A stretch of 39,882 bases of DNA from a virus. Location of the stretch: positions 1 through 39,882 of IMG/VR virus record IMGVR_UViG_3300035698_014481; one strand, 5' to 3'. The position numbers were made by a program, and so were the translations under genes. Within the stretch, counting starts at the first letter, position 1; each line of letters begins with the position of its first letter. The notes under the pieces were generated by a model. It had not been told where the DNA came from and did no database searches. It saw only the letters and a list, made by a program, of their open reading frames with translations. Of this stretch, positions 1,676 to 39,882 are shown one piece after another.

Positions 1676-1703
1676 ATTAACGCATATGAGGTGCACAGAA
1701 CAA

Positions 1704-2552: not shown

Positions 2553-2560
2553 GGTTAAAA

Positions 2561-3002: not shown

Positions 3003-3026
3003 TGACAAAAATAGAGACGGTGAAAA

Positions 3027-3638: not shown

Positions 3639-3795
3639 AAAAGATTTTCAACCATGTATATGGCTGAATCAGACTGAGACAGAAAAGATTATGTACTGGC
3701 TCTCAAAATACAATGGAACAAGAGATGTAAAGGATATCCTAATTAAATTACAAACAAAGATAGATCGCGCAAAAAGCAATGGAGACTGGAAATGA
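3628..3795 (+). CDS. Hypothetical protein (55 aa), below the track cut-off
   Basis: Own translation MMHEKDFQPCIWLNQTETEKIMYWLSKYNGTRDVKDILIKLQTKIDRAKSNGDWK. Overlaps the upstream stop, and its stop overlaps the polymerase ATG (ATGA). Confidence 0.45.
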   Translation: MMHEKDFQPCIWLNQTETEKIMYWLSKYNGTRDVKDILIKLQTKIDRAKSNGDWK

Positions 3796-6053: not shown

Positions 6054-6277
6054 CATTTAAAGAAGATTTCCCAAGTTTAAAAGATAGGAAGATATGTACT
6101 CTTGATGGTATAACAAAATTTGATATGATACCTACAAAAAATGTTATCAAAAACACTAGAGATATTAAGAAGATAAGGGAAGTTGTTACAGCTTATTTAT
6201 GTAAATATGCTTGTAGAAAAGATCCACAGATTAAAAAATATCGAGATGGAATACTCGAGGAGTTGAAAATACAATGA
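6050..6277 (+). CDS. Hypothetical protein
   Basis: Track ORF with ATGA overlap to the polymerase stop; no motif recognised. Confidence 0.5.
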   Translation: MTFKEDFPSLKDRKICTLDGITKFDMIPTKNVIKNTRDIKKIREVVTAYLCKYACRKDPQIKKYRDGILEELKIQ

Positions 6278-6411
6278 GCAAAATCTACAAATGTCAACAA
6301 TGCGAGCACATCTCTGAGACACTATACAACATGAACTGTGAGAAGTGTGGGAATAGTCATATCACTACTGGGAACAAGATAGATGGGGTGATTACATGGC
6401 AAACAGATTAG
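6274..6411 (+). CDS. Small zinc-ribbon protein (45 aa), below the track cut-off
   Basis: Own translation MSKIYKCQQCEHISETLYNMNCEKCGNSHITTGNKIDGVITWQTD with CxxC...CxxC. ATGA overlap with the upstream stop. Confidence 0.5.
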   Translation: MSKIYKCQQCEHISETLYNMNCEKCGNSHITTGNKIDGVITWQTD

Positions 6412-6857
6412 AAAACCATTTCAAATCAATCATGAAAACAAGTTTTCCACATTGTTATTTCAGAAAATTAGTTGTTCTTCCTGGTGTGTATAATAAAGCA
6501 CCTGCTGATTTTCTTTTATATGGGCGTCAATATCTCACCTTTATTGAATGTAAAGAGTGTGAAGGAACAAGCATCCCTCATTCAAAATTGACACAAGTTG
6601 CTCTTATGAGTAAGACTGCTAAAGAACATAATACAGTTTATTCTCATCAGATTGCTGGATATTTTCTTATACGGTTTTGGAAAGGTTCAAAAAAGAATTC
6701 AGCATACTATGTTATTAACGTTGGCGCTCTCAATACAATGATGGTTGAAGGTACAAAGAAATCATTTAACGAAGCAGATCTAGACACGTATAAATATACG
6801 TATGTGCAATTTTTAAAATTAATACAAGGGATGATAAATGGTTATGAAAACATTTAA
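6396..6857 (+). CDS. PD-(D/E)XK nuclease, possible Holliday-junction resolvase (Hjc/RecU-like)
   Basis: PADFLLYGRQYLTFIECKE fits D-x(n)-E-x-K. Sits between the polymerase and ligase in the replication/recombination module. Confidence 0.45.
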   Translation: MANRLENHFKSIMKTSFPHCYFRKLVVLPGVYNKAPADFLLYGRQYLTFIECKECEGTSIPHSKLTQVALMSKTAKEHNTVYSHQIAGYFLIRFWKGSKKNSAYYVINVGALNTMMVEGTKKSFNEADLDTYKYTYVQFLKLIQGMINGYENI

Positions 6858-7752
6858 ACCAATGCTAGCACCTAGCAAGAAAGTAGATTTGACAACGCTT
6901 CAGTTTCCTCTTCTTGCTTCATATAAACTCGATGGGATACGGTGTATCTTTAAGGATGGTGAGATGTTGAGTCGATCTTTCAAACAAATTCCAAACGTTC
7001 AGTTGCACAAAAAGATGAATGCTCTGAAAGTTACTGCAGCGCAGTCCAGTATCGTACTTGATGGTGAACTTTATTCACCAGACATGACATTCCAAGAAAT
7101 CACATCCGTTGTAATGTCAAAAGATAAAGAGGTCCCAGAATCTTTAAAATTTTTTATGTTTGATTCTGTGGGATTATTTGATCCTGATAGACCATTTATC
7201 TCAAGATATTCTTTGTCAAATGGAATTGCACAATCGATACCGTCATCGATTATCCAGTTAGTAGATCAAACATCTGTTGGATCTGCTGAAGAAGTCGAAA
7301 CGCTCTTCAAGCATGCTCTTAAATTTGGGTATGAAGGATTGATTCTGAAAGATCCTCTCGGTCGATACAAGTTTGGATGTGGGATTATTAAGGAAGGTCT
7401 TATCTACAAAGTCAAGCCATTTATAGAAAAGTCTGCAGTCATTAAGGGATTTGTTCAATCTACAGTTGTAGATCCAAGCGCTGAAAAGAAGATTGATGAA
7501 CTAGGAAATTCAGTTACTTCTAATAAGAAAGACGATCGAATTCCTATAAAAATGGCGGCGGCGTTTGTTGTAGATTGGAATGGGAAAAATCTCAGCGTAG
7601 TTATAGCTGATACGGAAGATAATAAAAAACTAATATGGACTAACCAGGAAAAGTACCTTGGATGCGAGATTAATTTCAAAGCAATGGATGTTGGCGCAAA
7701 AGATATCCCCAGGCATCCTGTGTTGACACGTATATGGTTAAAAGATGAATAA
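6838..7752 (+). CDS. ATP-dependent DNA ligase
   Basis: Motif I YKLDGIR, motif III VLDGELY, motif IIIa FFMFD, motif IV EGLILKD, motif V YKVKP. Confidence 0.9.
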   Translation: MVMKTFKPMLAPSKKVDLTTLQFPLLASYKLDGIRCIFKDGEMLSRSFKQIPNVQLHKKMNALKVTAAQSSIVLDGELYSPDMTFQEITSVVMSKDKEVPESLKFFMFDSVGLFDPDRPFISRYSLSNGIAQSIPSSIIQLVDQTSVGSAEEVETLFKHALKFGYEGLILKDPLGRYKFGCGIIKEGLIYKVKPFIEKSAVIKGFVQSTVVDPSAEKKIDELGNSVTSNKKDDRIPIKMAAAFVVDWNGKNLSVVIADTEDNKKLIWTNQEKYLGCEINFKAMDVGAKDIPRHPVLTRIWLKDE

Positions 7753-7805
7753 TGTGTGCTACACTACTTTAAAATAAAATGTCTCAGATTGACTCTATTT
7801 CAGTC

Positions 7806-8174
7806 TCAGGACATATCCTCAAAGTGAGGTTTGTTACCATACACAAAGATTTTTTTGTTGACGTTGTGCATTGACATCATGATGGGGATATGATACCTCA
7901 TCAAGAATTCTTCTGCTCTTTTAAGCTGATGATATGCGTGCCGTCTTCCTCTTCGCGAATATTTATATTCTGCTAGAATAAGCTCAGAGTCTTCGGTGAT
8001 AAACATAGCATCAGGCTGGCAAATAAGTTGATGAGTACCAGGCATTATTAGGTTAACCTCTTTCGCACTAAGCACCACTCCATCTATTCCGATGAGTTTA
8101 GGATTTCGTACAATCTGAGATAGGTTTCTATTGTGGTTGTCGTCTGTTTCTATAGGTATATGCTGGCTCATCAA
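7806..8174 (-). CDS. Hypothetical protein with PD-(D/E)XK-like signature
   Basis: QPDAMFITEDSELILAEYK fits PD-x(n)-E-x-K. It is the last gene of the minus-strand arm. Confidence 0.4.
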   Translation of the reverse strand: MMSQHIPIETDDNHNRNLSQIVRNPKLIGIDGVVLSAKEVNLIMPGTHQLICQPDAMFITEDSELILAEYKYSRRGRRHAYHQLKRAEEFLMRYHIPIMMSMHNVNKKIFVYGNKPHFEDMS

Positions 8175-8183
8175 TATTTCACC

Positions 8184-8393
8184 TTATTCGTCTGACCAGA
8201 TCTTTCTACCAACGTTGATCAATACAGCTGCGATTGCTCCTACAAGTGGTGCTACCATTGAGCTAATATCTAAATTTCCAAGATAGATACCAACTGCAGC
8301 GACACCGCCACCAACAAAAGCAATTCCTGCTCCTTTCAAGATCGATATTAGATCTTCTTTGTTCAATTCAAATCTTCCACTTTCTGTTGTCAT
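8184..8393 (-). CDS. Holin-like two-TM membrane protein (69 aa from ATG 8393; track ORF opens at 8456)
   Basis: GGTGA lies 6 nt before ATG 8393. Two hydrophobic segments, GAGIAFVGGGVAAVGIYLG and MVAPLVGAIAAVLINVG. Adjacent to the peptidase. Confidence 0.55.
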   Translation of the reverse strand: MTTESGRFELNKEDLISILKGAGIAFVGGGVAAVGIYLGNLDISSMVAPLVGAIAAVLINVGRKIWSDE

Positions 8394-8431
8394 AATTCTC
8401 ACCTTTATTTTTGATGTATGTAAGTATTTCA

Positions 8432-9217
8432 TTAATTCTTTATGATGCGCCACCAATCGAAACTCACCTTTTTGAAGTTTTCATAAGAAATTCTGTACTC
8501 TCCACGATTGCCCCATCCTGTACCCCATGAATTTTCTATAATAAACTCTTCTGTGTCCTCATCAAACCCAACAATAATCTGAGCGTGACCACCAATCTTT
8601 GATCCTAGTGGTACCCAGGGTTTATTTCTTAGTTTCTGGTATGATTTGTCTATCCACGCGCCGTATATCACCGGTCGCTTCTCAAGGAGAGACAGCTTAA
8701 TTTGCTCTAATGTGATGAGTCTTTGATAGCTCAACACTGGAAATAGGAATTTGCCACACCAATATGCTGCCCATGGAGGTTTCTTGTTATATTTTTTTAT
8801 GTTGTACGGCCAAGCGTACTCAAGAGACATTCCATATTTAGCAAGAGTTTTACAGGCATCACGTATAGACATTCCAGTATCTTTAGGGTATGTCTCTGTG
8901 ATTTCAGTGCGTGCTACGTAGTAGTGAAATAACTCAGAGCCTTCAATATATTTGTCCTCTTGAAGGAGCATGATCTCATAAGCTCGGATTGCTACATGTG
9001 ATGCACAAGATCCGATTGAGTATTGATTTCTGATAGGAGGAGTTGTAAGACGGAACTTTTGTGGGAATGGTAACGGTGCAAAGACAGTACACGTGCGATC
9101 ACGTGTGTCTTTTTCATCCTCAAGTGTGTTGAATATCTTGTCAGGTTTATGATTATAATGATGCTTGATGTATTGAGGAAACAGCCAATGCATCAGCTTC
9201 TGAATCACGTGACCCAC
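8432..9217 (-). CDS. Papain-like (family C1) cysteine peptidase, candidate lysin
   Basis: RNQYSIGSCASHV (Gln + catalytic Cys region), GGHAQIIVGFD (His), ENSWGTGWGNRGEYRISY (Asn-Ser-Trp-Gly block). The start codon is GTG; the alternative is ATG at 9193. Confidence 0.8.
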   Translation of the reverse strand: MGHVIQKLMHWLFPQYIKHHYNHKPDKIFNTLEDEKDTRDRTCTVFAPLPFPQKFRLTTPPIRNQYSIGSCASHVAIRAYEIMLLQEDKYIEGSELFHYYVARTEITETYPKDTGMSIRDACKTLAKYGMSLEYAWPYNIKKYNKKPPWAAYWCGKFLFPVLSYQRLITLEQIKLSLLEKRPVIYGAWIDKSYQKLRNKPWVPLGSKIGGHAQIIVGFDEDTEEFIIENSWGTGWGNRGEYRISYENFKKVSFDWWRIIKN

Positions 9218-9468
9218 CCTTTAGCGTGCAAGATTTGAAATATGATCCACCCAATAAATGAAAACGCTGCAACGAGAATTGTCACTAATAACTTTCGAAT
9301 ATCAGTTTCAATTTTCTTCACAGTACCTTCAACCCATTTGTCGGCTTTATGTTCGTTGATGTTGTCTACTTTCTTCTCTATATTATCAAGTATTGTTTCT
9401 ATTGCCACAAGTCTCTCACCGTGTGTTGTCATTTTTAGTAACCTATTAATTTTTATCTGTGTGCTCAT
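9205..9468 (-). CDS. XhlA-like lysis-associated protein (coiled coil plus C-terminal TM)
   Basis: N-terminal heptad-like RLVAIETILDNIEKKVDNI and C-terminal TM LLVTILVAAFSFIGWIIFQIL. Immediately upstream of the peptidase. Confidence 0.5.
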   Translation of the reverse strand: MSTQIKINRLLKMTTHGERLVAIETILDNIEKKVDNINEHKADKWVEGTVKKIETDIRKLLVTILVAAFSFIGWIIFQILHAKGWVT

Positions 9469-10069
9469 ACCAATCTAATGTGATGTTATGAGTGATTGTG
9501 TCCGTAGTTAAGCTAGACATTATAATCACATATTGTGTACCTGCTGCTAGCACAAACTCATTTACTCCTCTGCTCTCTCCACTGTCTGATTTTTTGCCTT
9601 CTGAACCAAAAAACTTCATCATCAAAGGTGTAGTGGTAGAGATATTAGCTGTTGCTGCTTGAGCTTCATTATAGCTTGTTGCTGTATTAGCTACAACAGG
9701 ATCAGTTATTGAAGTGACAATTGATTCTGTTGCTGTCTTGTTTCTATTGTGATTATAAATGGTGAGGTCTGTTCCCTCATCTACATCAATACTTGGTGCT
9801 TCGTATAAGCCCATTGTAGAGCCACCTGTCGAAGAAGCGTGAATTACAAGATGTAACAATTTAGTACCTGCTGGACAATTAAAAGCAATAGCTGTCATTT
9901 CGCCAATGTTTGTCACTTCGTTTGAATAGTGGCAAGTGAATGAACTTCCACTATGTACTTCATGATGGGCGTAGTCTATTGTTTCAAGTGCTTCTGTTGA
10001 TGCATCTACTCCGCTTTTTCCAGCTTCGTAATCAACTCCGTTAATATAAATTTTTCTTATGTTTGTCAT
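9446..10069 (-). CDS. Putative tail fibre/receptor-binding accessory protein
   Basis: Track ORF 9446..10078. GGGTGG precedes the ATG at 10069 (TAATG overlap with the upstream stop). Ser/Thr-rich beta-type composition. Call is from position in the fibre block only. Confidence 0.4.
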   Translation of the reverse strand: MTNIRKIYINGVDYEAGKSGVDASTEALETIDYAHHEVHSGSSFTCHYSNEVTNIGEMTAIAFNCPAGTKLLHLVIHASSTGGSTMGLYEAPSIDVDEGTDLTIYNHNRNKTATESIVTSITDPVVANTATSYNEAQAATANISTTTPLMMKFFGSEGKKSDSGESRGVNEFVLAAGTQYVIIMSSLTTDTITHNITLDWYEHTDKN

Positions 10070-10392
10070 TAATGCCACCCCTCTGTTGAATCGTAGTGAA
10101 TTATGATTGTCTCTGCATCTATCAGCACAAATGCAACTCCTGCACCATCACCAAAAATTTGTTCTGTTCCATTTGGGTCTATGGTTATATCGTTTCCAGA
10201 TGAACCAACATTTGAAATCTGATATTCTGTACCTTGCACTCCTGCAGGAAGACTGATTGTAAATGCTCCACCATCTGTATCTCCGAATACAATATGATGT
10301 GTTCCATCAAGAGTCGTTGCTCCTGTGACTCGATCAGTGTTCATGATACGACCTTTCTCAGTCTCTAATTTTACATGTGACACGTTAGTCAT
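10069..10392 (-). CDS. Hypothetical structural protein (107 aa from ATG 10392)
   Basis: GGAG lies 8 nt before ATG 10392 (MTNVSHVKLE...). The longer track ORF start at 10488 has no RBS. Confidence 0.5.
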   Translation of the reverse strand: MTNVSHVKLETEKGRIMNTDRVTGATTLDGTHHIVFGDTDGGAFTISLPAGVQGTEYQISNVGSSGNDITIDPNGTEQIFGDGAGVAFVLIDAETIIIHYDSTEGWH

Positions 10393-10515
10393 TTTTGAAG
10401 CTCCACACCAATGTGCTATTTTCAAATACTTCAAGACGATCATTCTGATGAACTTGATAAACAGTTCCTTCTGTTTCAGGTGTACCAAGATCTGGGAATA
10501 GTAATAAAAGACTCA

Positions 10516-11601
10516 CTAGACTCCACCCCAGAATCCTGTGTTGAGTGTCATGATACCTGGAACAGCTCCACCGCCACCACTTTCTTCTTCTGCACCAAAT
10601 GTGAGCTCATGGTCTCCAGTTGGAAGTACGTTGTAGTATTCAAATTTTGACCAATCTAAAGCTCTTGTTGCGGTTGATATTCTTACTTCAGCGATGCATC
10701 CTTTCATAGCACCAACACCATAACCATCATAAACATTTCCTAAACGGACATTATCATAATCAGCCCAAGCTTTTGCTGCGTAGTTATTGGCATTTGTTAT
10801 ACCATTGCAGAAAACAGTAGATGCGTTAATACCAGTGCCGTTAGCTCTAATCCCAACATAAACCCAACTTTCATCAGTATAATTGCTATCTACAGTACGC
10901 GCACCACTAGAAGAACTACTAGCACTACGAACACTAGCCCTCTCACTTGTTGCATGTACTTTTGTTTGGTAATAACTTCCTTCGGATGCTTTATTAACCA
11001 AAACAAACGTAGGATTATACGGACTAAACTGGTATATCCATACAGATATTCCAAAATTCTCGTCAGTAACTCCACAGTTACTTGATACATTCATATAATC
11101 GTTAACAGAAGTGTAATCAAAATAATATGCACCACTACCATTTAATTTAAGTGTTGTTTGCCAAGCTGCACCGCCATTAGTTAAGGTATGTTCATTTCCA
11201 CTAGAATCCACCAATCCATTATCGTTAAGATGCCACACTGCTCCAAAAGTAGAGTCCCAAGCATTTTCAGCGTCTTCACCGTCGGTGGTGTCATTTGAAC
11301 GGTAGTAAATATAAATTTCATTTGTACCTGAAGAAGACAAGGCTGTTTTTACCCATATAGTAGCATTAAGTTCATCAGAAGCAACTGTGAATGCTTGTCG
11401 TTCATACTTTAATAAAGTAGAACCATTAGATGCAGTGAACCGAATATCATGACCATCAGAATTTGTTGCAAGACCTATATCTCCATCCGTAGCAATAACA
11501 ATCGAAACTGGAAAATCTGTAAGGTCACTATCGATATTAGTATTATCAATAGTGATTTTCTTTCGTTTCGTGTATTCGATACCATCGACTGTCCATGTCA
11601 T
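10516..11601 (-). CDS. DUF2341 + LamG (concanavalin-like lectin) domain protein, putative adhesin
   Basis: KRKKITIDNTNIDSDLTDFPVSIVI...GHDIRFTASNGSTLLKYERQ...TIWVKT...IYIYY matches the DUF2341 pattern. It is followed by AVWHLNDNGLVDSSGNEHTLTNGG, typical of LamG_3. Start moved to MTWTVDG (11601), just after the upstream stop. Confidence 0.65.
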   Translation of the reverse strand: MTWTVDGIEYTKRKKITIDNTNIDSDLTDFPVSIVIATDGDIGLATNSDGHDIRFTASNGSTLLKYERQAFTVASDELNATIWVKTALSSSGTNEIYIYYRSNDTTDGEDAENAWDSTFGAVWHLNDNGLVDSSGNEHTLTNGGAAWQTTLKLNGSGAYYFDYTSVNDYMNVSSNCGVTDENFGISVWIYQFSPYNPTFVLVNKASEGSYYQTKVHATSERASVRSASSSSSGARTVDSNYTDESWVYVGIRANGTGINASTVFCNGITNANNYAAKAWADYDNVRLGNVYDGYGVGAMKGCIAEVRISTATRALDWSKFEYYNVLPTGDHELTFGAEEESGGGGAVPGIMTLNTGFWGGV

Positions 11602-11911: not shown

Positions 11912-14461
11912 CTATGGAGCTGTAAACCCTAATACTGTAACGCTATGCGTTGTCATTGTTGCTGATGTGAATCCTAAATTTTTATTTGCTGTGAGTTTCA
12001 ATGGTGTCTTTAAGTTAATAACCGCACCGCCATTTATTGCAAAAAACATTAATTCAAGAACATCAGTTGCTGATGCTGTATCTTCTACCAGTTTAATACT
12101 TCCAGCTGTTGCACCGTTTGATATGATAATGTCAGTAATATATAATGACAAATTTGCGCCAGGTGTTGCAACTAATTCATTTGCAGTTTGTGCTTCTGTG
12201 GCAGTTTCAGATGCTCTCCATAGATTTGGATGTGCATCATTTACAAATAATCTACCATTAACATCTGCGATCAGGTTTGTTCGATCATCTTCAGCAACAC
12301 TTCCTGGATCAGTTCCATCTTGATTTTTTGCAATTGCTCCTATCTTAATAGGATTTCCACTGTCAGCAGCATCATGAGCAACATCCCCATCAACTTCAAC
12401 TGTATTTGTAATATCTGTTACTGCTGTTACTGTACCACTTGAAAGAACTACAGCTCCTGTATTACAAGCTGTGATTTTCCCATCTATAGAAGTTGTGTCT
12501 CCTGCTATAGTACCTGTATCAGCATCTATTGTTGTCAGTATAGCTTCACTACTTGTTTGTAATGCTGCGGTTGAAGCTCCTGTTGGTAATGCAGAACTTA
12601 GAACATCAACATCACCAATATCTACGCCAGAGTTAGCTGTAAGTTTTCCAATTCCTGCTGTTCCAGCTGCCAACACAACAGCACCTGTATTACAAGCAGT
12701 AATCTTCCCATCGATAGAAGTTGTGTCTCCTGCAATTACACCTGTATCAGCATCTATTGTTGTCAGTATAGCTTCACTACTTGTTTGTAAAGCATCAGTA
12801 GCTGCTCCTGTTGGTAATGCAGAACTTAGAATATCAACATCACCAATGTCAACACCAGAATTAGCTGTAAGTTTTCCAATTCCTGCAGTTCCAGCTGCCA
12901 ACACAACAGCTCCGGTATTACAAGCTGTTATTTTTCCATCTATCGAAGTAGTATCTCCTGCTATAGTTCCAGAATTAACTTCAGTCATATTCAAATCAGC
13001 TGCAGTATCTTGAGCAACAAAAAGCTCACGCTTTGCAGACATTTTAAATGCACCAGAATCTCCTGCATCAACTACATCAGTAGTAAAAGTTCCACCAACA
13101 GGTGTTAAAGCTGTTGTACCAGGAGTAAATGCAGCATCATCTGTTAATGAAGTCCCACCAGCTGCGGATCCTTCTTCAATAGATACTTTAAGATTTCCAC
13201 TTCCTGTTAGTGCTGCAGGAAGTTTTCCATCGATTGATGTAGTATCACCAGCTATAGTATCAAGATTACCACCTGATTCTGTAGCTAGAGCAGATGTGTT
13301 GAGATTGGTTCCTGCATCTGCTGTGATTGTTCCATCAACTGTGACTGTATCAGTAATTGCTGTAACAGCTGTAAGTGTTCCTGATGAAACAACAACTGCT
13401 CCAGTATTACAGGCAACGATCTTACTATCCATTGATGTAGTATCACCTGCGATAGTGCCAGAATTAACTTCAGTCACATTAAGATCAGCTGCGGTATCTT
13501 GAGCAACAAAAAGCTCACGCTTTGCAGACATCTTGAATGCTCCAACGTCACCAACATCAACAGTATCTGTTGTGAATGTTCCACCAACAGGTGTGAGTGA
13601 AGTAGTTCCTGGAGTAAATGCAGCATCATCTGTGATGGATGTTCCACCAGCATCTGCTCCTTCCTCAATAGAAACTTTAAGATTTCCACTTCCTGTCAAT
13701 ACAGCAGGAAGTTTTCCATCGATAGATGTAGTATCACCAGCTATAGTATCAAGATTTCCACCTGATTCTGTAGCTAATGCTGAAGTGTTTAGATTAGTTC
13801 CAGCATTTGCTGTGACTGTTCCGTCAACTGTGACTGTATTTGTGATGTCGGTTACAGCTGTGAGTGTACCACTTGAAACAACAACGGCTCCAGTATTACA
13901 CGCTACAATCTTACTATCCATTGATGTAGTATCACCAGCTATAGTATCAAGGTTTCCACCGGATTCTGTAGCTAGTGCAGATGTATTTAAATTCGTTCCA
14001 GCATCTGCTGTGATTGTTCCATCAACTGTGACTGTATCGGTAATTGCTGTAACAGCTGTGAGAGTTCCTGAGGAAACAACAACTGCTCCGGTATTACAGG
14101 CAACGATCTTACTATCCATTGATGTGGTATCACCTGCGATTGTTCCTGTATCGCTGTCTATGGTGGTCAGTATAGCTTCACTACTTGTTTGTAATGCTGC
14201 TGTTGAAGCTCCTGTAGGTAATGCTGAACTTAGAACGTCAACATCACCGATGTCTACTCCTGAGTTAGCAGCGAGTTTTCCTATTGCTGCAGTTCCTGCA
14301 AGTAATACTACAGGAAGACCCTCTACGTCTGTGATTCTTGTTTGTGTATTATCAGCTCCGAAAGCCAATTTTACGTATTGCCAATGTGCTGTACCGTCGT
14401 CATCAGTCTTAACTACTGAACCTCCAGACATCGTGTTTAATTCAACATTATCAGTTGCCAT
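11912..14461 (-). CDS. Repetitive tail fibre / receptor-binding protein (849 aa)
   Basis: AGGAGG RBS. About 11 copies of the IAGDTTS(M/I)D(S/G)K core arranged in three larger module types. Non-repetitive C-terminal ~150 aa domain. Position in the tail module. Confidence 0.7.
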   Translation of the reverse strand: MATDNVELNTMSGGSVVKTDDDGTAHWQYVKLAFGADNTQTRITDVEGLPVVLLAGTAAIGKLAANSGVDIGDVDVLSSALPTGASTAALQTSSEAILTTIDSDTGTIAGDTTSMDSKIVACNTGAVVVSSGTLTAVTAITDTVTVDGTITADAGTNLNTSALATESGGNLDTIAGDTTSMDSKIVACNTGAVVVSSGTLTAVTDITNTVTVDGTVTANAGTNLNTSALATESGGNLDTIAGDTTSIDGKLPAVLTGSGNLKVSIEEGADAGGTSITDDAAFTPGTTSLTPVGGTFTTDTVDVGDVGAFKMSAKRELFVAQDTAADLNVTEVNSGTIAGDTTSMDSKIVACNTGAVVVSSGTLTAVTAITDTVTVDGTITADAGTNLNTSALATESGGNLDTIAGDTTSIDGKLPAALTGSGNLKVSIEEGSAAGGTSLTDDAAFTPGTTALTPVGGTFTTDVVDAGDSGAFKMSAKRELFVAQDTAADLNMTEVNSGTIAGDTTSIDGKITACNTGAVVLAAGTAGIGKLTANSGVDIGDVDILSSALPTGAATDALQTSSEAILTTIDADTGVIAGDTTSIDGKITACNTGAVVLAAGTAGIGKLTANSGVDIGDVDVLSSALPTGASTAALQTSSEAILTTIDADTGTIAGDTTSIDGKITACNTGAVVLSSGTVTAVTDITNTVEVDGDVAHDAADSGNPIKIGAIAKNQDGTDPGSVAEDDRTNLIADVNGRLFVNDAHPNLWRASETATEAQTANELVATPGANLSLYITDIIISNGATAGSIKLVEDTASATDVLELMFFAINGGAVINLKTPLKLTANKNLGFTSATMTTHSVTVLGFTAP
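12392..14305. repeat. Intragenic mosaic tandem repeats inside the fibre gene
   Basis: Protein residues 108-180 and 336-408 are identical. Residues ~240-340 repeat at ~402-502 (486-nt period), and the LAAGTAGIGKLTANSGVDIGDVD...ACNTGAVV module occurs 3 times. DNA copies differ mostly at synonymous sites. Confidence 0.9.
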
Positions 14462-27512: not shown

Positions 27513-28586
27513 TCATTGAATTAGTCCCAGTGGAGTTTTTAGTTCTCCTCCGAGCTTTAATGTAGTTATTCTTTCTATATACCCTTTTATGATCGGTTCA
27601 TTCATCTGTGCTTTCAATTTAATTAATTCCTCTTCATTTGATTGAAGCTTAGATTTAATTGCTTGCAGAGGACCTGCAGCGACTTTGTCAACGTTAGCTT
27701 GCTGTAGTTCTCCTTCGATGACTGTCTTGTCAGCCTGAACAACTGCAAGTTTATCACGAAGATCCTTTGTTTCATTCTCTGATTTTTCAACACGAGCAGC
27801 AAGTTCTTTAATCTGTGTGTCTGTAGCAGACAGCTCTGGTGTTGGTACAACAGGAGCTGGTTCTGCAGGTGCAGGAACGACTGGTGCTACTGGTGCAACA
27901 GGAGCTGGTTCAGCTGGTGCTGGTGCTGGTGCTACTGGAGCGGGAATTGTTGGTTCTACTGGTACTGTATTTCCATTATTATTTTCTTCTGGCATTTTGG
28001 TATCCTCCATAGATTTAATATAAGATTTAAGTGCAGGTGCAAAGGTCGCATTTGGATTAACTGGGTTGCCAGTTAATGTGACATTCACGAGATTCCAAGC
28101 ATCGATGAATCGTTGCTTAACTCCATTAACAACCTTCTCTGCGAACTTAACCGCATATCCAGCTATACTGAAACTGTGCAAAAACCCGTCCTTGATACTG
28201 TTCCACACTTCTTTAAACCTAGGATTATTTGAATTGATCTCGACCTTTGCCCAAACTCCTCGCTCTTTGAGCTCAGCGTCGACAATCTTGCCGATAGGTA
28301 TGATTCCACCTTTTGGTGTATTAAGAAGATCTTGTGGCCCATTATCAGGATTAGCTGCTCCACCTGGTTTTTTAAACCATACTTCATGATCCATATCGAG
28401 TGTAATTTGTTTATTCTTGACTTGAACAAGAAGATCTCTCTGGCCAGTCATAGTGACTACCTCACCCATATCATCAGGATCAATGGTTGATATATAGCCT
28501 TCCACGTAATGTTTCTGGCCACCTTTTAGACCTACAGTTGACCACTGCAGTCCTCCCATTTGGTATGTAAATTGTTTCTGGTCCAT
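27513..28586 (-). CDS. Prohead protease (HK97/S78-like) fused to a Pro/Ala/Val linker and a coiled-coil scaffold-like tail
   Basis: EGYISTIDPDDMGEVV, DMDHEV (His), GFLHSFSIAGYA (Ser) fit the S78 pattern. Linker PVEPTIPAPVAPAPAPAEPAPVAPVAPVVPAPAEPAPVVP. C-terminal heptad-like region. Start moved to ATG 28586, 1 nt after the upstream stop. Confidence 0.7.
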   Translation of the reverse strand: MDQKQFTYQMGGLQWSTVGLKGGQKHYVEGYISTIDPDDMGEVVTMTGQRDLLVQVKNKQITLDMDHEVWFKKPGGAANPDNGPQDLLNTPKGGIIPIGKIVDAELKERGVWAKVEINSNNPRFKEVWNSIKDGFLHSFSIAGYAVKFAEKVVNGVKQRFIDAWNLVNVTLTGNPVNPNATFAPALKSYIKSMEDTKMPEENNNGNTVPVEPTIPAPVAPAPAPAEPAPVAPVAPVVPAPAEPAPVVPTPELSATDTQIKELAARVEKSENETKDLRDKLAVVQADKTVIEGELQQANVDKVAAGPLQAIKSKLQSNEEELIKLKAQMNEPIIKGYIERITTLKLGGELKTPLGLIQ

Positions 28587-28587
28587 T

Positions 28588-28947
28588 TTATTCGTCCGAT
28601 AAGTATACAAGAATACGCGCCACTCCTGCATTTCCACCTTGGGCAATGACAACCTTTATGGTTCCTGTCAAAAACATCTTGCATCCTGCGTCTGTAAATG
28701 CTGATGCATCTGCTACTTTAGATGGGATAGCTCGCACATAATATGAAGCATTAGCTTGTGCCTGATCTGTGATGGTTGTGATAGCTTCACTATATGAATC
28801 CTCACATGTGATAGTAATATCTGCTGTTGATGCTAATGATGTGTTGACGTTAACTACCTTCTCAAGAAAGCCTCTCGCTTGGACAGTACTTGTAAGTGTC
28901 AATGACCCGTCTGCTGCGGCTGTTCCTGTTAATTCGATGATTTGCAT
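28588..28947 (-). CDS. Hypothetical head-associated protein (119 aa from ATG 28947)
   Basis: GAGGT lies 6 nt before ATG 28947 (MQIIELTG...). Confidence 0.5.
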   Translation of the reverse strand: MQIIELTGTAAADGSLTLTSTVQARGFLEKVVNVNTSLASTADITITCEDSYSEAITTITDQAQANASYYVRAIPSKVADASAFTDAGCKMFLTGTIKVVIAQGGNAGVARILVYLSDE

Positions 28948-34555: not shown

Positions 34556-34628
34556 TGGCAAGAGATGGATTCGAACCACCAAACCTCCAATCGATACATG
34601 GTGCTGTCCCGACTCAGCTTATCTCACC
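34556..34628 (-). tRNA. tRNA-like element with degenerate anticodon arm (anticodon undetermined, nominally AUC)
   Basis: Minus strand GGTGAGA-TAA-GCTG-AGTCGGGA-CAGC-...-GGTGG-TTCGAAT-CCATC-TCTTGCC-A. The T arm and D stem are canonical, and the acceptor has 5 WC + 2 GU pairs. Only 3 WC pairs can be drawn for the anticodon stem. Confidence 0.5.
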
Positions 34629-34640
34629 GCTTAATTCCTT

Positions 34641-34745
34641 TCATTTATGTATCACAGTTCTAGCAACTTCAATGGCTTGAATTCGCTTCTCAAGCTTTAC
34701 CATCCTTTTAAGCAGTTCTTCATATGTGATTTTAATCATCATCAT
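34641..34745 (-). CDS. Possible 34-aa helical mini-ORF
   Basis: Own translation MMMIKITYEELLKRMVKLEKRIQAIEVARTVIHK. ATGA overlap with the upstream stop. Speculative. Confidence 0.25.
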   Translation of the reverse strand: MMMIKITYEELLKRMVKLEKRIQAIEVARTVIHK

Positions 34746-35173
34746 CCCCTCTGTTCAGTTAATAGGTCAAGTAGATCCACCACTTGATCTTCAGGTAATT
34801 GAAGATCTATATTGATATTGGTGCTCTCAACCTTTAGTTTGTCACCAAAATGCATTTTATGCCATTTAGCAGTAGAATTGATAACAGTCTCAAAATTCTT
34901 AAGATCTGGGTTCTCGATTGCTATTGTACGCATCCGATCAATCATGATTGCCACATCCAACGCCGACATTGATGGATCTATCATTAAATTATATAATCTT
35001 TGCGCATCAGCGTCATTCATGTTGCCACGACGCCGTAGGGCTGCAATGCGAGCCGCTAGACGCTGCTTCGGCGTCACTACCTTACCTCCTATGCGTCCGG
35101 CTGCCGCTGCGGCCTCGCGGTCTTTAAAGTACATTGGTGGATGTCTACCATTACTCCCTAATCCGTCGCCCAT
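34742..35173 (-). CDS. Candidate terminase small subunit (positional)
   Basis: 143 aa, the closest sizeable protein-coding gene upstream of terL. Basic Ala/Arg-rich N-terminus REAAAAAGRIGGKVVTPKQRLAARIAALRRRG. No family motif confirmed. Confidence 0.4.
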   Translation of the reverse strand: MGDGLGSNGRHPPMYFKDREAAAAAGRIGGKVVTPKQRLAARIAALRRRGNMNDADAQRLYNLMIDPSMSALDVAIMIDRMRTIAIENPDLKNFETVINSTAKWHKMHFGDKLKVESTNINIDLQLPEDQVVDLLDLLTEQRG

Positions 35174-35188: not shown

Positions 35189-35347
35189 CTATGTAACTTT
35201 GAACTTGCCTTGTCTGTGTTGCTCTATCGCCTCTCGTACAAACTCTGAGAAGCCTATTCGTAGCTTCTTCAAATACGCCCGATCGGTTAATTTGACGGAT
35301 GCCGTGACATTTGTTGTTTTAGGTCCGCCTTCATACTTTCGTGCCAT
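35189..35347 (-). CDS. Ribbon-helix-helix (CopG/Arc-like) DNA-binding protein (52 aa), missing from the ORF track
   Basis: Own translation MARKYEGGPKTTNVTASVKLTDRAYLKKLRIGFSEFVREAIEQHRQGKFKVT, with a beta strand (VTASVKL) then two helices. First gene downstream of promoter/operator S4. Confidence 0.5.
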   Translation of the reverse strand: MARKYEGGPKTTNVTASVKLTDRAYLKKLRIGFSEFVREAIEQHRQGKFKVT

Positions 35348-35355: not shown

Positions 35356-35398
35356 CTATTAATTTAATAGTTGTACCAGTATATAAATCTTTCTATTT
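35356..35398 (-). promoter_or_regulatory. Archaeal-type BRE/TATA promoter plus palindromic operator (site S4), driving the minus-strand arm
   Basis: Minus strand AATAGAAAGATTTATATA, 9-nt spacer, CTATTAAATTAATAG (35370-35356). The ATG of the RHH gene is 9 nt past the palindrome. Confidence 0.6.
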
Positions 35399-35552
35399 CG
35401 CAACACTTGGTTTCCTATTTATAAACCTTTCTATTAATACATCATTTGTCTCATTTGTCTAGATTACCACATGTTTTAGCCCTATATACAAATATTGTTA
35501 AAATTGGTCTATAGGGCCTAACTAGTTAGAAATCTAGTCAATCCTGTCAAAT

Positions 35553-35570
35553 AATAGAAACATTTATATA
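35553..35570 (+). promoter_or_regulatory. Archaeal-type BRE/TATA promoter (site S3, no palindrome), driving the plus-strand arm
   Basis: AATAGAAACATTTATATA is identical to the 18-mer at 1634-1651. The AbrB-like gene ATG lies 50 nt downstream, behind GGTGGG. Confidence 0.55.
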
Positions 35571-35619
35571 CCTGTTTGATTATGTTTATACAAGGTTTAA
35601 TAAAATCACGGTGGGAATT

Positions 35620-35808
35620 ATGAAAATAACAAAAACATTATTGAAGTTTGGAGGGAGTTTAGGCTTGATTCTGCCTAAGCTTTTCTGGAATCACTTGGAG
35701 TTGCAAGAACAATCGAACGTTTCGATCGAAGATTGCGAAGACGAAAATGGTATACCATTTATAAAGGTGATGCTCTGTGAAGATTCCGAAACAACTTCAA
35801 AAGAATAG
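35620..35808 (+). CDS. AbrB/SpoVT (MazE-type looped-hinge-helix) DNA-binding protein
   Basis: LKFGGSLGLILPKLFWNHLELQEQSNVSIE fits the SpoVT-AbrB pattern (G-x-S-h-x-h-x-h-P-K). ATG 35620 lies behind GGTGGG; the track start is GTG 35611. Confidence 0.6.
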   Translation: MKITKTLLKFGGSLGLILPKLFWNHLELQEQSNVSIEDCEDENGIPFIKVMLCEDSETTSKE

Positions 35809-37960
35809 GTTTATACGGACAGTAGGTAAGTTCCCGATAGACAAAAATTGGTCTACTACGAACCATTTTCCTGCAGAGGAAATCAAGGGGTCTTACGGCG
35901 TAGTTTGTGGGTACAACAACCTTATAGTAGTTGATTGCGATAATGAATACTCAGATCGCGTGCTGCACACAATAGAAACATTTAAAAACACCTTCCAAGT
36001 CATTACTGCAGGGAAACAACTAACACACTTTTATTTTTATACAGATATCCCTAAAACGATGCGTGTTCAGACACCAAAGGCTAAGTTAGATGTGCAAGGT
36101 AAGGGTGCAATGGTCGTCGGTCCAGGAACTGAGATTGATGACAGTTTATATATGATTTTAAATGATTCCGAGATCCAATTTATTACACAGGAGAATCTTC
36201 TGAAGATCTTTAGTGAGTTATTTGATTATTCACCACAATCAAGCAAACCTAAGAAAAATCAGGATAAAGTAAACGAAGACTATGATGCGGTGTGTAAGAT
36301 CATCAAGCGTGAAGTTCCAATTGAAGATGTTTTAAAAGAGAATGGAATTGATACATCGAAGCATGGTCAATTGAGTGATTGTCCATTTCATAAGAGCGAA
36401 AGTCATACATGCTTTGCCAGGTATGTTGACGATGATGAAACAATATGGAAATGCTTTCATTGTGGTAAAACAGGCAATGTTATTCAGCTCTATCAACAGA
36501 TTAAGAAGATGAGTTTCACTGAGGCAAAGGAAGAGTTAGCAGATCGAGTTAGTATTTCAAAATCACTCCAAAAACAAGTAATGGAGTTTATAAGTCAGAA
36601 GAGAAAGGAAGAAGCAACAGAGTGTATAGTTGTAGAGTTTTTACGACGATATAAGACCCTTACGCTCAGAGATGACAACAAGCCTGAGATGTGGATTTAT
36701 TCGGGTGGTGTCTACGTACCAAATGGTAGATCTTACATTAAGGAGTTTGTTGAGTCTGTCTTGGGTCCATTCTATACATCACACTATTCTGGGAAGGTTA
36801 TCTCTAAGATTGAGGCGAAGACGTTTTGTGATGAGGAGGAGTTGTTCACAAACGAAAACCCTGAATTAATTCCAGTACATAATGGTGTGTTGAACGTCAT
36901 GACTGGGACGTTGTTCCCAATATCAGATCAATATCGATTTTTTAATAAGTTACCTGTACGTTATGATCGGGATAAGGAATGCCCAAATATCAAAAAATTC
37001 TTCGAGTCGCTTCTTGATGATCCAAAGGATATCAAGACTATTCAGGAAATGTTTGGGTATGTCTTATATCGAAAGTATACATTCAAGAAGGCATTCATGA
37101 TGACAGGGAACGGGAACAATGGAAAAAGTCAGGTGTTCAATCTGTTAAGTAAATTGATAGGAGTAAAGAATCAATGTGAAATCCCATTGCAAAAGTTGGA
37201 CACTGAGAAGTTCCTCTTAGTTAATCTTCATATGAAGATGGTGAACATTGGTGGAGATATTGGTCAAGCTAGATTAGAAGAGACTCAAACATTTAAGCAG
37301 ATAACAGGACGTGATGTCGTGACAGCTGACAGGAAATTTCTGTCTACGATCTCATTTAGATCATATGCTAAGCAAATCTTTGCAGCTAATCAGATCCCGC
37401 AGACTAATGACATGTCTGACGCTTTCTTTGAGCGGTGGATTATTATCGATTTTAAGAAAACATTCAAGAATCGATTAGAGTATGAACACTTATCTGATGC
37501 TGAGAAGATCATAAATGATATCCACTTAGCAGATCCGAATATCTTAGATAAGATCGTAACTGCTGATGAATTGAGTGGTCTCTTGAACTGGTCACTCCTT
37601 GGTCTTGCTAGATTGATGAAGAATAAGGAGTTCACAACTACAACAACGGTAGATTTGGTAAGGCAGATGTGGATACGTAAATCATCATCGTTTAATGCAT
37701 TCCTTGATGATTGTATTACTCGTGTATGGAATCCAGAGGAAATGTTACTCCATGAAGATCTAATGGATAGATACCATCGCTATTGTTTCGAGCATAAAGT
37801 TAAGAGTGAGATCTCAAAGCTGACTAAAGATAAGATGAATGCATTTGGTTCAGAAAAGGTGCGGCCAATGAAAGGAGGTCAGCGTGACTGGTATTGGACT
37901 AACATCGCGTGGAAAGATGACAAAACAATTGAGAATGTGGCTAAATATGCGTCAAAATAG
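35777..37960 (+). CDS. Replicase: AEP prim-pol domain + CHC2 zinc finger + D5_N/SF3 (P4-type) helicase
   Basis: Prim-pol LIVVDCDNE (DxD), LTHFYFY (His motif), DVQGKGAMVVGPGT. Zinc finger CPFHKSESHTCF...WKCFHCGKTGNVIQL. Walker A MMTGNGNNGKSQ. GTG start overlaps the AbrB gene end. Confidence 0.85.
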   Translation: MKIPKQLQKNRFIRTVGKFPIDKNWSTTNHFPAEEIKGSYGVVCGYNNLIVVDCDNEYSDRVLHTIETFKNTFQVITAGKQLTHFYFYTDIPKTMRVQTPKAKLDVQGKGAMVVGPGTEIDDSLYMILNDSEIQFITQENLLKIFSELFDYSPQSSKPKKNQDKVNEDYDAVCKIIKREVPIEDVLKENGIDTSKHGQLSDCPFHKSESHTCFARYVDDDETIWKCFHCGKTGNVIQLYQQIKKMSFTEAKEELADRVSISKSLQKQVMEFISQKRKEEATECIVVEFLRRYKTLTLRDDNKPEMWIYSGGVYVPNGRSYIKEFVESVLGPFYTSHYSGKVISKIEAKTFCDEEELFTNENPELIPVHNGVLNVMTGTLFPISDQYRFFNKLPVRYDRDKECPNIKKFFESLLDDPKDIKTIQEMFGYVLYRKYTFKKAFMMTGNGNNGKSQVFNLLSKLIGVKNQCEIPLQKLDTEKFLLVNLHMKMVNIGGDIGQARLEETQTFKQITGRDVVTADRKFLSTISFRSYAKQIFAANQIPQTNDMSDAFFERWIIIDFKKTFKNRLEYEHLSDAEKIINDIHLADPNILDKIVTADELSGLLNWSLLGLARLMKNKEFTTTTTVDLVRQMWIRKSSSFNAFLDDCITRVWNPEEMLLHEDLMDRYHRYCFEHKVKSEISKLTKDKMNAFGSEKVRPMKGGQRDWYWTNIAWKDDKTIENVAKYASK

Positions 37961-37997
37961 AAACCTTTATATATTAATTATACTATTAAGTTAATAG
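37956..37997 (+). promoter_or_regulatory. Archaeal-type BRE/TATA promoter plus palindromic operator (site S2)
   Basis: AATAGAAACCTTTATATA, 9-nt spacer, CTATTAAGTTAATAG (37983-37997). The BRE overlaps the replicase stop codon. The next gene starts at 38044, behind AGGTGA. Confidence 0.6.
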
Positions 37998-38043: not shown

Positions 38044-38397
38044 ATGACATATGCAAGTGATAAAGGACTCGAAATTGGAGACAAAATTAAGTATCTTGGC
38101 AAAGGTGATCTTGAGACTGGGTCAATACTAACATTTACATACGATGATGACACAAGTATTCCAAAGTTTACTGATTCTAAAGGTAGAACTCAATGGTTTA
38201 GTTTAAAACGTGAGTGGGAGAAAGTGTCTATCAACAAGCCAATTTGCAGTGTTCCTAACAAAATGACTGAAAAATATTTCCCATTTGTAGGAACAGAGGG
38301 GTGTAAAGATACACCTCATCCAGTGACTGGGGATTTATCTCCAGATGACATCAATATTTTTGAACTAACACTCACAACAAAGTCTAAAAAGACTTAA
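38044..38397 (+). CDS. Hypothetical protein
   Basis: Track ORF with AGGTGA RBS. Confidence 0.6.
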   Translation: MTYASDKGLEIGDKIKYLGKGDLETGSILTFTYDDDTSIPKFTDSKGRTQWFSLKREWEKVSINKPICSVPNKMTEKYFPFVGTEGCKDTPHPVTGDLSPDDINIFELTLTTKSKKT

Positions 38398-38411: not shown

Positions 38412-39050
38412 ATGACAAACGAACAAACAGCACAAGATAAAAAAGTTTTTGCAGACATCGAAGCAGCAGACAAAGGACAACCTGCTACACCAACACCAAC
38501 ACCAGCATCGTCTAACGAACCAACTGAGTATGACCCAAATGCGCTTTCCGATACACTAATCGGTGATAAGGTAAGCTATAAACGAGAATCTTTAGATGGT
38601 CAGACGCTAGGAGTTGCACAAGTTAATCTCTATCCAGGAGATGCTACTGGTACACCTGATGCGAAAGATAGCAGCGTCAAAATAAGTCAGAATGGAATAT
38701 CAACCTATGTTAAAATGGGTTTTAAGATGACATTTGATCTTAAAAACGCTGATGACGTTAACCATCAAGAATGGTTATCAGGTGCACGACAATTTGTCCA
38801 ACGTGACGGTGGATTATCTGAACCATCATTCTGGTATGCGACAGAAGATGATTCACGAAAGAGTCAAGTCGCTAAGCTTTGGGAAAAAGTGGCTGCTGCG
38901 AAGAAAAAAGAGCCTAAAGATCTCTCTAATCGAGAATTTTTAGCATTTCTGAACAACAAACCAAAAGCGAAAATTATCTTCGAGAAACAACAAGCCTTCC
39001 CTGGTGAAAAACCAGTAAGTAAGAATATTGTTGAGAAATTCGAAGCTTAA
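38412..39050 (+). CDS. Hypothetical protein with N-terminal Pro/Thr linker (possible DNA-binding/recombination accessory by position)
   Basis: Track ORF with PATPTPTPASS low-complexity segment. No motif confirmed. Confidence 0.55.
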   Translation: MTNEQTAQDKKVFADIEAADKGQPATPTPTPASSNEPTEYDPNALSDTLIGDKVSYKRESLDGQTLGVAQVNLYPGDATGTPDAKDSSVKISQNGISTYVKMGFKMTFDLKNADDVNHQEWLSGARQFVQRDGGLSEPSFWYATEDDSRKSQVAKLWEKVAAAKKKEPKDLSNREFLAFLNNKPKAKIIFEKQQAFPGEKPVSKNIVEKFEA

Positions 39051-39288: not shown

Positions 39289-39882
39289 TCCGACTCTCAT
39301 ATTCCCAAATCAAGCTCTTCAAGAGCTGTCCTATGAAGTACTTTCACAAGTACATACTCATGCTTCCCGAAGCACCTAATAAGCATTTACACTATGGATC
39401 GGCTGTACATGAAGCTATTGAAAAATTTATGAAAACAGATCGATTTTATTTTTCCGAGATAGAGAATAAATACCCACTTGCTATACAGAAAAAATTACTT
39501 ATAGATATTATTGAGATTTCATCTGATTCTGTAGAATGGTTCCTCAACAAATTCGGACAACCTTTACGTATTGAGCAGAAATTTTTTCAACATATACTTG
39601 ATGATATTTGGTTTATTGGCTATGCTGATGTAATTACAGGTGATGACATCATTCTGGATTGGAAGACAGGTAAGTTCACCCCATCAAAGGCAGATGATTA
39701 TAAAGAACAGACTAAATACTACGCCTATTTGTTTTATAGACAATATGGATATCTCCCAAAGGCTTGTGCATTGTTCTTTGTGGATGAGCAGAAGTATATT
39801 GAATACACATTCACCAAATTTGAAGTCATGCAGGTTGAGAAAGAAATCATTGAGTATGGTGACATTATAAAAAATATAACAC
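39285..39882 (+). CDS. Cas4-like PD-(D/E)XK nuclease / SF2 helicase fusion, 5' portion (open to the window end, continues at base 128 after collapsing the overlap)
   Basis: Own translation MIRLSYSQIKLFKSCPMKYFHKY...HYGSAVHEAIE...IGYADVITGDDIILDWKTGK...QTKYYAYLF... has no stop through base 39882. Shows an N-terminal Cys, D...DxK and QxxxY blocks typical of Cas4/RecB-type nucleases. Confidence 0.8.
   Translation, partial: MIRLSYSQIKLFKSCPMKYFHKYILMLPEAPNKHLHYGSAVHEAIEKFMKTDRFYFSEIENKYPLAIQKKLLIDIIEISSDSVEWFLNKFGQPLRIEQKFFQHILDDIWFIGYADVITGDDIILDWKTGKFTPSKADDYKEQTKYYAYLFYRQYGYLPKACALFFVDEQKYIEYTFTKFEVMQVEKEIIEYGDIIKNIT
39756..39882. repeat. Terminal direct repeat copy B, identical to 1-127
   Basis: Read directly, 127 of 127 identical. 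Confidence 0.95.

Follow-up and report, generated by a model that had tools for sequence, protein, structure and literature searches.

The palindrome and the promoters beside it

The DNA analysed here, called the window throughout, is the whole of positions 1 to 39,882 (39,882 nt) of the viral IMG/VR record IMGVR_UViG_3300035698_014481. It contains a 15-bp palindrome, CTATTAA-N-TTAATAG (CTATTAANTTAATAG), that recurs just downstream of three archaeal-type core promoters and is considered here as a candidate operator. Next to one of the copies lie the genes for two small probable DNA-binding proteins, a ribbon-helix-helix (RHH) protein and an AbrB-like protein, which are read from divergent promoters. 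The features of the control region and of the two distant copies are the following:

1634-1651, plus strand: core promoter AATAGAAACATTTATATA, made up of a purine run resembling a transcription factor B recognition element (BRE) and a TATA box; heads the unit 1686-7752
1661-1675, without strand: candidate operator copy O1, CTATTAATTTAATAG, 9 nt past the TATA box
34742-35173, minus strand: 143-aa open reading frame (ORF) after the RHH gene, without family match, with a look-alike (judged by eye) in the related locus L011
35189-35347, minus strand: probable RHH protein of 52 aa, first gene of the minus-strand unit and the favoured (predicted) operator ligand
35356-35370, reading CTATTAAATTAATAG on the minus strand: candidate operator copy O2, 9 nt past the TATA box, with the start codon of the RHH gene following after 8 nt
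35380-35397, minus strand: core promoter AATAGAAAGATTTATATA (minus-strand sequence) of the RHH gene and the structural unit
35418-35435, minus strand: second promoter-like motif AATAGAAAGGTTTATAAA, one mismatch, with the box TTTATAAA, 38 nt upstream of the RHH promoter and without palindrome
35553-35570, plus strand: core promoter AATAGAAACATTTATATA, without palindrome; heads the AbrB-like/primase operon
35620-35808, plus strand: AbrB/MazE/SpoVT-like protein of 62 aa, first gene of the primase operon
35777-37960 (predicted start), plus strand: primase-helicase with Prim-Pol, CHC2 zinc finger, D5_N and DUF5906/P4-type helicase domains
35971-35988, plus strand: weak promoter-like motif with two mismatches, within the primase ORF
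37956-37973, plus strand: core promoter AATAGAAACCTTTATATA, immediately past the primase stop codon; heads the unit from 38044
37983-37997, without strand: candidate operator copy O3, CTATTAAGTTAATAG, 9 nt past the TATA box

Exactly three perfect copies of the palindrome are present in the window, while the expected count is 0 and none arose in 100 dinucleotide-preserving shuffles. The half-sites are not paired at any other spacing in the window, and among perfect inverted repeats with 7-nt arms and spacers of 0-8 nt this palindrome alone recurs genome-wide with identical arm and spacer. A version with two mismatches at 34751-34765, in the 3'-terminal part of an ORF and not near any TATA box, is at chance level (0.27 expected). 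From the TATA box TTTATATA (1644-1651, 37966-37973 and, on the minus strand, 35387-35380) to the start of the palindrome the distance is exactly 9 nt in all three cases, which bears out what the first-pass annotation of this DNA had reported, and AATAGAAA-NN precedes TTTATATA at every copy. Aligning the three promoters leaves all 14 arm positions invariant, with T, G or A as centre base (on the plus strand T at 1661-1675, T at 35356-35370, corresponding to A on the minus strand, and G at 37983-37997), while only three of the nine positions between TATA box and palindrome are invariant. Invariant arms combined with a varying centre and spacer are the signature of a site for a dimeric protein, not of plain duplication.

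Judging from the spacing, transcription would start at about the 3' end of the palindrome, which would then cover positions of roughly -14 to +1, and the leader of the RHH mRNA would be roughly 8-10 nt long. The annotation had indeed placed the palindrome over the predicted start, in a position typical of repressor sites, and both points hold for this predicted position; LrpA and MDR1 block recruitment of RNA polymerase (RNAP) from there (PMC2995911).

The core promoter motif AATAGAAAnnTTTATATA occurs in the window in four perfect copies and in one copy with a single mismatch. It has the composition of an archaeal promoter, with the TATA octamer TTTAWATA preceded by a purine-rich BRE. The earlier count of four promoters in all was thus too low, as there are five good copies of the core motif and a weaker sixth with two mismatches. 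Correctly recognised was the promoter at 35553-35570, which shares the AATAGAAACATTTATATA core and lacks the palindrome; the region matching the position of the palindrome is AT-rich there as well. The "isolated half-site" proposed at 35431-35439 is no independent element, since it is the reverse complement of the AATAGAAAG part of the fifth promoter motif together with two flanking T's.

Outside the window, the AATAGAAAnnTTTATATA core was found in over 100 viral contigs besides the related loci L007, L008/9 and L011. As these contigs, found in a scan of IMG/VR, are mostly unrelated, the core represents a generic promoter that is not specific to this virus. Relatives of the primase are located in contigs labelled archaeal in 24 of 30 cases (species-level genome collection), the labels including Woese-, Pace- and Aenigmatarchaeota, Thermoplasmatota, Methanosarcinales and Bathyarchaeia. 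Since most of these relatives are in contigs of archaeal metagenome-assembled genomes, reading the motif as BRE and TATA box is reasonable. On the same grounds it is reasonable to regard the window as the genome of an uncultivated tailed virus that infects an archaeon. A reading as bacterial sigma-70 promoters was rejected, sigma-70-like sites not being enriched in the window.

Three of the promoters with their palindromes head long transcription units. The unit 1686-7752 comprises small ORFs, a DUF6948 gene and the genes for a methyltransferase, a YopX/PolB-exonuclease protein, a Holliday-junction resolvase and an ATP-dependent ligase. The unit from 38044 spans the terminal repeat of the genome up to the superfamily 2 (SF2) helicase gene (16-1632). 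On the minus strand, the RHH gene and the 143-aa ORF are followed by a tRNA-like element and the gene for the terminase large subunit (TerL), which would place the 143-aa ORF in the operator-controlled minus-strand unit. The AbrB-primase operon is the only major unit without the palindrome.

Several further repeats were observed in the control region. Between the TATA box of the AbrB-like gene and its ribosome-binding site, at 35574-35606, three direct repeats resembling GTTTnAT can be seen by eye, recurring about every 10-11 nt; they are a site candidate for the AbrB-like protein, and no equivalent was seen in relatives. The region between the divergent promoters (35442-35531) holds a tandem TCATTTGTC in two copies (35442-35459), the inverted repeat GCCCTATA...TATAGGGC, whose arms are 23 nt apart (35479-35517), and the palindrome CTAACTAGTTAG (35518-35529). 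In the equivalent inter-promoter region of the related locus L002, and by eye of L007, there are longer, G+C-richer inverted repeats, with 15-nt perfect arms GCTTAGGTCGCTTAA / TTAAGCGACCTAAGC in L002. These inter-promoter repeats may represent a replication origin or a second operator. A blastn search of the control region against GenBank phages gave no match.

The probable RHH and AbrB-like proteins

Protein families were built by iterative searches with hidden Markov models over the ORFs of related loci. The family of the 52-aa protein (A2, 10 aligned sequences) aligned to CopG with an hhalign probability of 90.7% over 39 columns, including the strand and both helices. In a search of the PDB with the A2 profile CopG was the best real match, aligned end to end (E = 0.055), and single members of the family match the Pfam families RHH_1 (2 members), CcdA (4) and RHH_3 (2). 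The RHH label given to this protein earlier is therefore supported for the family profile but not for the protein itself, which has no Pfam or PDB match of this kind, and the 52-aa protein is a probable RHH DNA-binding protein by virtue of its family. Its gene has a perfect palindrome in the interval from TATA box to ATG. Comparison of the RHH beta-strands with the operators did not yield a readable recognition code, as the strands differ even among relatives that share the operator core.

A similar situation was found for the 62-aa protein. Searched alone, it has no match in Pfam (including PF04014), PHROGs or the PDB, and large collections contain no identical or word-sharing relative. In the family seeded from it (A3, 14 aligned sequences), 9 of 14 members match PF04014 (best E = 5.4e-7); this family-level match takes in the region of the G-x-S...IP motif. 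Matches of the A3 profile in the PDB are 2glw, MazE, 3o27 (protein C68 of pSSVx) and AbrB/SpoVT. The single-sequence AlphaFold2 model of the AbrB-like protein was poor and was left unused. Here too the earlier label stands at the level of the family and not for the single sequence, and an AbrB/MazE-type DNA-binding protein is probable. In relatives, the promoters of AbrB-like genes have long leaders and Shine-Dalgarno sequences and no consistent element.

Symmetric elements at the promoters of related viruses

Relatives were compared over 8-14 kb each, L008/L009 and L019 over 12-13 kb, and their primases show 35-41% identity to that of the window. All local members of the RHH family are encoded directly behind a TATA box, and most have a palindrome or a tandem repeat in the stretch from this box to the ATG. 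In L002, L008, L011, L019 and L026 the RHH gene starts 23-25 nt after the TATA box, which corresponds to the archaeal distance (about 23-26 nt) from TATA box to start for leaderless mRNAs.

L008/L009, whose primase is 39% identical, have three 9-mers in tandem at the RHH promoter, TTATATAAG TTATACAAC TTATATAAC, and the promoter that directly follows the primase gene has GTTATATAAcTTATATAAC, located 11 nt past a canonical AATAGAAAAGTTTATATA. The element TTATATAAC, present in 2-3 tandem copies with the core TATATAA-N-TTATATA, is confined to those two promoters within 12 kb (8 matches versus 0.17 expected), and the promoter of the primase operon lacks it, as in the window. A database scan with this element gave nothing informative besides L008/L009 themselves. 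In L019 (primase 37% identical) ATATATAAgTTATATAT is located at the RHH promoter, and a second perfect copy is located at a promoter upstream of a homologue of the window gene 38412-39050 (39% identity, E = 3e-39); the primase promoter has a degenerate copy. Six matches were counted in L019 versus 0.38 expected, a number reached in 0 of 200 shuffles. Thus in L008/L009 and in L019 the promoter of the regulator gene shares a genome-specific symmetric element with another promoter, which belongs to the replication module. The TATATAA-N-TTATATA core is common to L007, L008/9 and L019; it agrees with the palindrome of the window in the 7-1-7 geometry and in the inner TAA-N-TTA, and differs in the outer four positions.

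Other symmetric elements between TATA box and RHH start codon are AAATAAATAAtTTATTTATTT in L002, ACTATAT-N5-ATATAGT in L026 and TTATATATcATATATAA in L011; those of L026 and L002 occur once each in the fragments examined. The L008/L009 and L019 loci have an RHH gene and no AbrB-like ORF in the 12-13 kb examined, which speaks for RHH as the ligand.

Among the candidates that were discarded, a TATA-N9-palindrome hit in the viral collection (IMG/VR; L001) was a chance match inside an ORF of an unrelated AT-rich contig. Seven such hits in metagenome contigs were likewise unrelated; none of these contigs resembled the window by blastn and none had the promoter motif. CCCTATA/TATAGGG was also rejected as a conserved primase-adjacent motif, its counts in relatives being at or below a rough composition-based estimate.

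By eye, the first gene after the post-primase promoter encodes a small putative regulator in L007, L002 and L011: a second RHH-like protein in L007 (8298-8432) and zinc-ribbon-like CxxC proteins in L002 (12253-12373) and L011 (7158-7397). The 117-aa protein in this place in the window (38044-38397) is without RHH-like or zinc-ribbon features. Two unrelated contigs also reuse the core promoter. The 196-kb jumbo contig L161 (IMGVR_UViG_3300028048_000047) has at least 14 core promoters AATAGAAACMTTTATATA within 9 kb (2245-11090), and behind each of them about 35 nt are conserved (CTAnnnCTTAnAnATTAATAATTGTRAGTG...), which makes a virus-specific promoter cassette. Contig L118 (IMGVR_UViG_3300010350_000668) has the same core promoter at 1170, 5869 and 9564 (minus strand), followed 9-10 nt later by TATTAATA / ATATTA half-site palindromes in an arrangement resembling that of the window.

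Proposed function and alternative explanations

Taking all possible ligands together, we consider it quite probable, from the sequence comparisons, that the palindrome is an operator, that is, a site bound by a regulatory protein. The virus would use the TATA-binding protein (TBP), transcription factor B (TFB) and RNAP of its host at four to five near-identical strong BRE/TATA promoters. A dimeric virus-encoded repressor, most likely the 52-aa RHH protein (35189-35347), would bind the palindrome as a dimer or as a pair of dimers. The bound repressor would leave the binding of TBP and TFB free and sterically stop RNAP recruitment or promoter opening. As RHH is encoded by the first gene behind one operator copy, its own synthesis would be under negative feedback. 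Further targets of its repression would be the structural/packaging unit and two units of the replication module, 1686-7752 and 38044-1632, and the AbrB-like/primase operon, having no operator, would escape its control. That the site is bound, that a given protein binds it and that binding represses is the most economical reading of these arrangements; for the virus's own RHH protein as the ligand we put the chances slightly better than even.

The first-pass annotation had described the region as a compact early/late switch. This is not supported, because the operator is shared by the structural (late) unit and two replication units, which predicts co-regulation, not temporal separation.

Several observations weigh against an RHH-bound operator. 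It is not obvious what temporal programme would result from a repressor whose gene heads the structural operon and which shuts off this operon along with replication genes. Palindromes with arms of at least 7 nt were present no more than 32 nt downstream of the core promoter in 10.4% of 135 unrelated viral contexts, compared to 2.6% in shuffles, and their frequency upstream was similar to that downstream. The weight of the evidence therefore lies in three identical copies at one offset, and a single palindrome would prove little. The exact palindrome is absent from all 115 related loci examined, and with the database matches being unrelated, conservation of this exact sequence cannot be shown. 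The elements of the relatives are TATA-like (TATATAA) and partly overlap the TATA box, and their offset varies (overlapping or 11 nt downstream) compared to 9 nt in the window. The first-pass annotation itself had held that its proposal would fail if related genomes kept the promoters but not the palindrome or its spacing; taken literally this is the case, yet these relatives share only 35-41% primase identity and have elements of their own in equivalent places. As to the protein, the window RHH sequence alone has no match in Pfam (E <= 10) or PHROGs, and phmmer against the PDB gave one non-RHH match only (E = 0.48). Large collections hold no identical protein and no word-sharing homologue, an exhaustive phmmer search of 1.84 billion representative proteins found no relative, and the single-sequence AlphaFold2 monomer was poor, with a predicted local distance difference test score (pLDDT) of 69 and one long helix.

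An unlikely alternative is that the AbrB/MazE-like protein (35620-35808) binds the operator and shuts all other units during ongoing replication, in a carrier-state or episomal-maintenance circuit. Its promoter is the sole strong one without the site, its family is well supported by the PF04014 matches and by the profile matches to MazE, AbrB and C68 of pSSVx, and a small repressor in an operon with a replicase is a known plasmid design, as in the CopG-RepB and pRN1 ORF56-ORF904 operons. Yet L008/L009 and L019 share the promoter element without having an AbrB-like ORF, the relatives' AbrB-gene promoters are not marked by a common element, and no integrase was seen among the large ORFs scanned in the window. 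Moreover, repressors encoded by the first gene of an operon usually regulate themselves, which the AbrB-like protein would not do here; we infer that it more likely acts on its own promoter via another site. A circuit of two repressors, in which the operator-less AbrB-like/primase operon maintains an episome and the other three units are under one repressor, is decidedly unlikely. If true, the virus, with a DPANN-type or other uncultivated archaeon as its host, would possess an integrase-free switch for a carrier state or pseudolysogeny, and a circuit of this type is not yet described for archaeal tailed viruses. The ligand might also be a host regulator or another viral protein that was not recognised, which we regard as very unlikely. 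Most small ORFs of the genome are without assignable function, and operators that recruit host factors are known in viruses. The element is, however, genome-specific and the core promoter widely shared, which argues for a virus-specific ligand, and the consistent association of the relatives' elements with the RHH gene points to RHH.

Two further explanations need no DNA-binding protein. The palindrome could be an intrinsic AT-rich, initially melted region or initiator within a duplicated strong-promoter cassette that raises promoter strength, which seems clearly improbable. With 13 of 15 positions A/T, it lies over the region melted in the open complex, the promoter without operator is likewise AT-rich there, and L002 and L161 have non-palindromic conserved sequences downstream of the TATA box. 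In archaeal viruses, strong core promoters of a common type with virus-specific flanks have been described (PMC11065993). But neither melting nor initiation needs dyad symmetry, yet the arms are perfect in all three copies while centre and spacer vary, and the same perfect core occurs at the fourth promoter, where there is no palindrome. The likeness of the promoter copies ends at the promoter (repeat family D9), so they do not stem from a recent large duplication, which counts against a duplicated cassette. Finally, the palindrome could form an RNA hairpin in the 5' leader, acting on stability or translation, or a terminator of the upstream gene, given that O1 and O3 lie just past stop codons (helicase at 1632; primase at 37960). 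We rejected both, and they are extremely unlikely: the predicted folds are weak (-1.9 to -3.6 kcal/mol, z-scores -0.5 to -1.05 in three 36-nt contexts), the best fold of one of the three contexts does not use the palindrome, no T-run or terminator-like site was found behind it, and there is no Rfam match. With the start predicted at the 3' end of the element, most of the palindrome would not even be transcribed from the adjacent promoter.

The genome is an unusually clean and easily testable case, with four to five near-identical strong promoters, one short perfect candidate operator on three of them and two small candidate regulators beside the control region. How tailed viruses of uncultivated archaea regulate their genes is essentially unstudied.

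Genome organisation and further features

Positions 1-127 and 39756-39882 of the window are identical and form a perfect direct terminal repeat of 127 nt. This indicates that the viral genome is complete, with a length of about 39.8 kb (about 39,755 bp), and terminally redundant or circularly permuted; the gene region of the helicase runs on over the junction at the repeat. On the plus strand, from 35620 through the repeat to 7752, there are the genes for the AbrB-like protein, the primase-helicase, the SF2 helicase, the methyltransferase, the YopX/PolB-exonuclease protein, the resolvase and the ATP-dependent ligase. On the minus strand, from 35347 to 7806, the RHH gene, the 143-aa protein gene and the tRNA-like element are followed by genes for TerL, the portal, a Mu-F-like protein, the protease/scaffold, the major capsid protein, tail proteins and a papain-like protease.

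The tRNA-like element is located at 34556-34628 (minus strand), between the 143-aa ORF and TerL. Its score with the Rfam tRNA model is 34.2 bits, compared to a gathering score of 29; the T-arm (GGTTCGAATCC) is canonical, a 3' CCA is present, and the anticodon arm is short and irregular. The element is absent from the ARAGORN output and from the output of the Rfam scan of the whole window. It could be a degenerate viral tRNA or the remnant of an attachment site.

An ORF of 849 aa at 11912-14461 (minus strand) contains several internal direct repeats of 240-300 nt with 78-91% identity and has no Pfam match; it probably encodes a fibre or adhesin with repeated domains. At 27833-27967 a coding repeat based on 9 nt and rich in Gly, Ala and Thr lies inside the protease/scaffold-like ORF 27513-28652, and a short-period repeat of the GCTCTGGCGATGGCG type (2932-3000) immediately precedes the methyltransferase gene. 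The papain-family cysteine protease domain at 8432-9217 (minus strand; PF00112, E = 9e-8), encoded where the structural module ends, may have a role in lysis or in the degradation of the cell wall.

Comparison with known systems

For LrpA of Pyrococcus and MDR1 of Archaeoglobus it was demonstrated that binding downstream of the TATA box blocks RNAP recruitment while TBP and TFB still bind (PMC2995911). As in the window, their operators are located right after the TATA box and over the start site. They belong to the Lrp and DtxR-like families and control cellular genes, so that only the position of the site is comparable.

Among viral RHH repressors, SvtR, AvtR and F55 target the promoter of their own gene as well as further promoters of the virus (PMC5569661). 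The small dimeric F55 of Sulfolobus spindle-shaped virus 1 recognises repeated sites that overlap the start site or BRE in its own promoter and in several others of the virus (PMC5569661), and in this way one regulator acts on several transcription units, as proposed for the window. The F55 sites are tandem direct repeats (ATAGATAG), while the window has a 7-1-7 palindrome. F55 maintains lysogeny of an integrating fusellovirus, and none of the ORFs scanned in the window was seen to encode an integrase. F55 and the RHH protein of the window share no detectable sequence similarity, and the host of F55 is crenarchaeal, compared to the DPANN/euryarchaeal-type context suggested here. SvtR of SIRV1 (rod-shaped virus 1 of Sulfolobus islandicus) and AvtR of Acidianus filamentous virus 6 (AFV6) are RHH proteins that repress their own gene and the promoter of a structural gene and recognise imperfect inverted repeats (PMC5569661). 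Their high-affinity sites can be far from the TATA box (about 80 nt upstream for SvtR), with spreading along the DNA; the sites in the window are, in contrast, three short perfect palindromes at one fixed offset.

C68 of pSSVx, an AbrB-like swapped-hairpin factor, is among the PDB matches of the local AbrB-like family (3o27). Its reported target TATG(C/GG)TTTTC contains no palindrome, and the promoter of the AbrB-like gene in the window has no palindrome either.

Arc and Mnt of phage P22, CopG of pMV158 and ORF56 of pRN1 are small RHH proteins, each encoded by the first gene of an operon that is repressed via a symmetric operator overlapping the promoter. The arrangement in the window resembles them in the first-gene RHH protein and the symmetric operator, CopG being the best structural match of the local family. 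Arc, Mnt and CopG act on bacterial sigma-70 promoters, unlike the archaeal-type promoters of the window. Furthermore, CopG and ORF56 head a replicase operon, while the RHH gene of the window heads the structural operon and the AbrB-like gene heads the replicase operon. An autoregulated operator of the RHH type over an archaeal promoter is a familiar design and not conceptually new, so that its finding in an unstudied group of viruses would add a further example rather than a new principle.

In early genes of archaeal viruses (Aca8-type), a strong BRE/TATA core is surrounded by genome-specific flanks that are thought to bind a virus-encoded repressor (PMC11065993). As in the window, a nearly identical core is reused many times per genome and the flanks differ between related viruses. 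The Aca8-type cases concern single small anti-defence genes of Sulfolobales viruses and a winged helix-turn-helix regulator, whereas the window represents a tailed virus with three long operons that include replication and morphogenesis genes. Study of this system would also show whether the idea of a common core with virus-specific flanks, developed for viruses of Sulfolobales, extends to archaeal Caudoviricetes.

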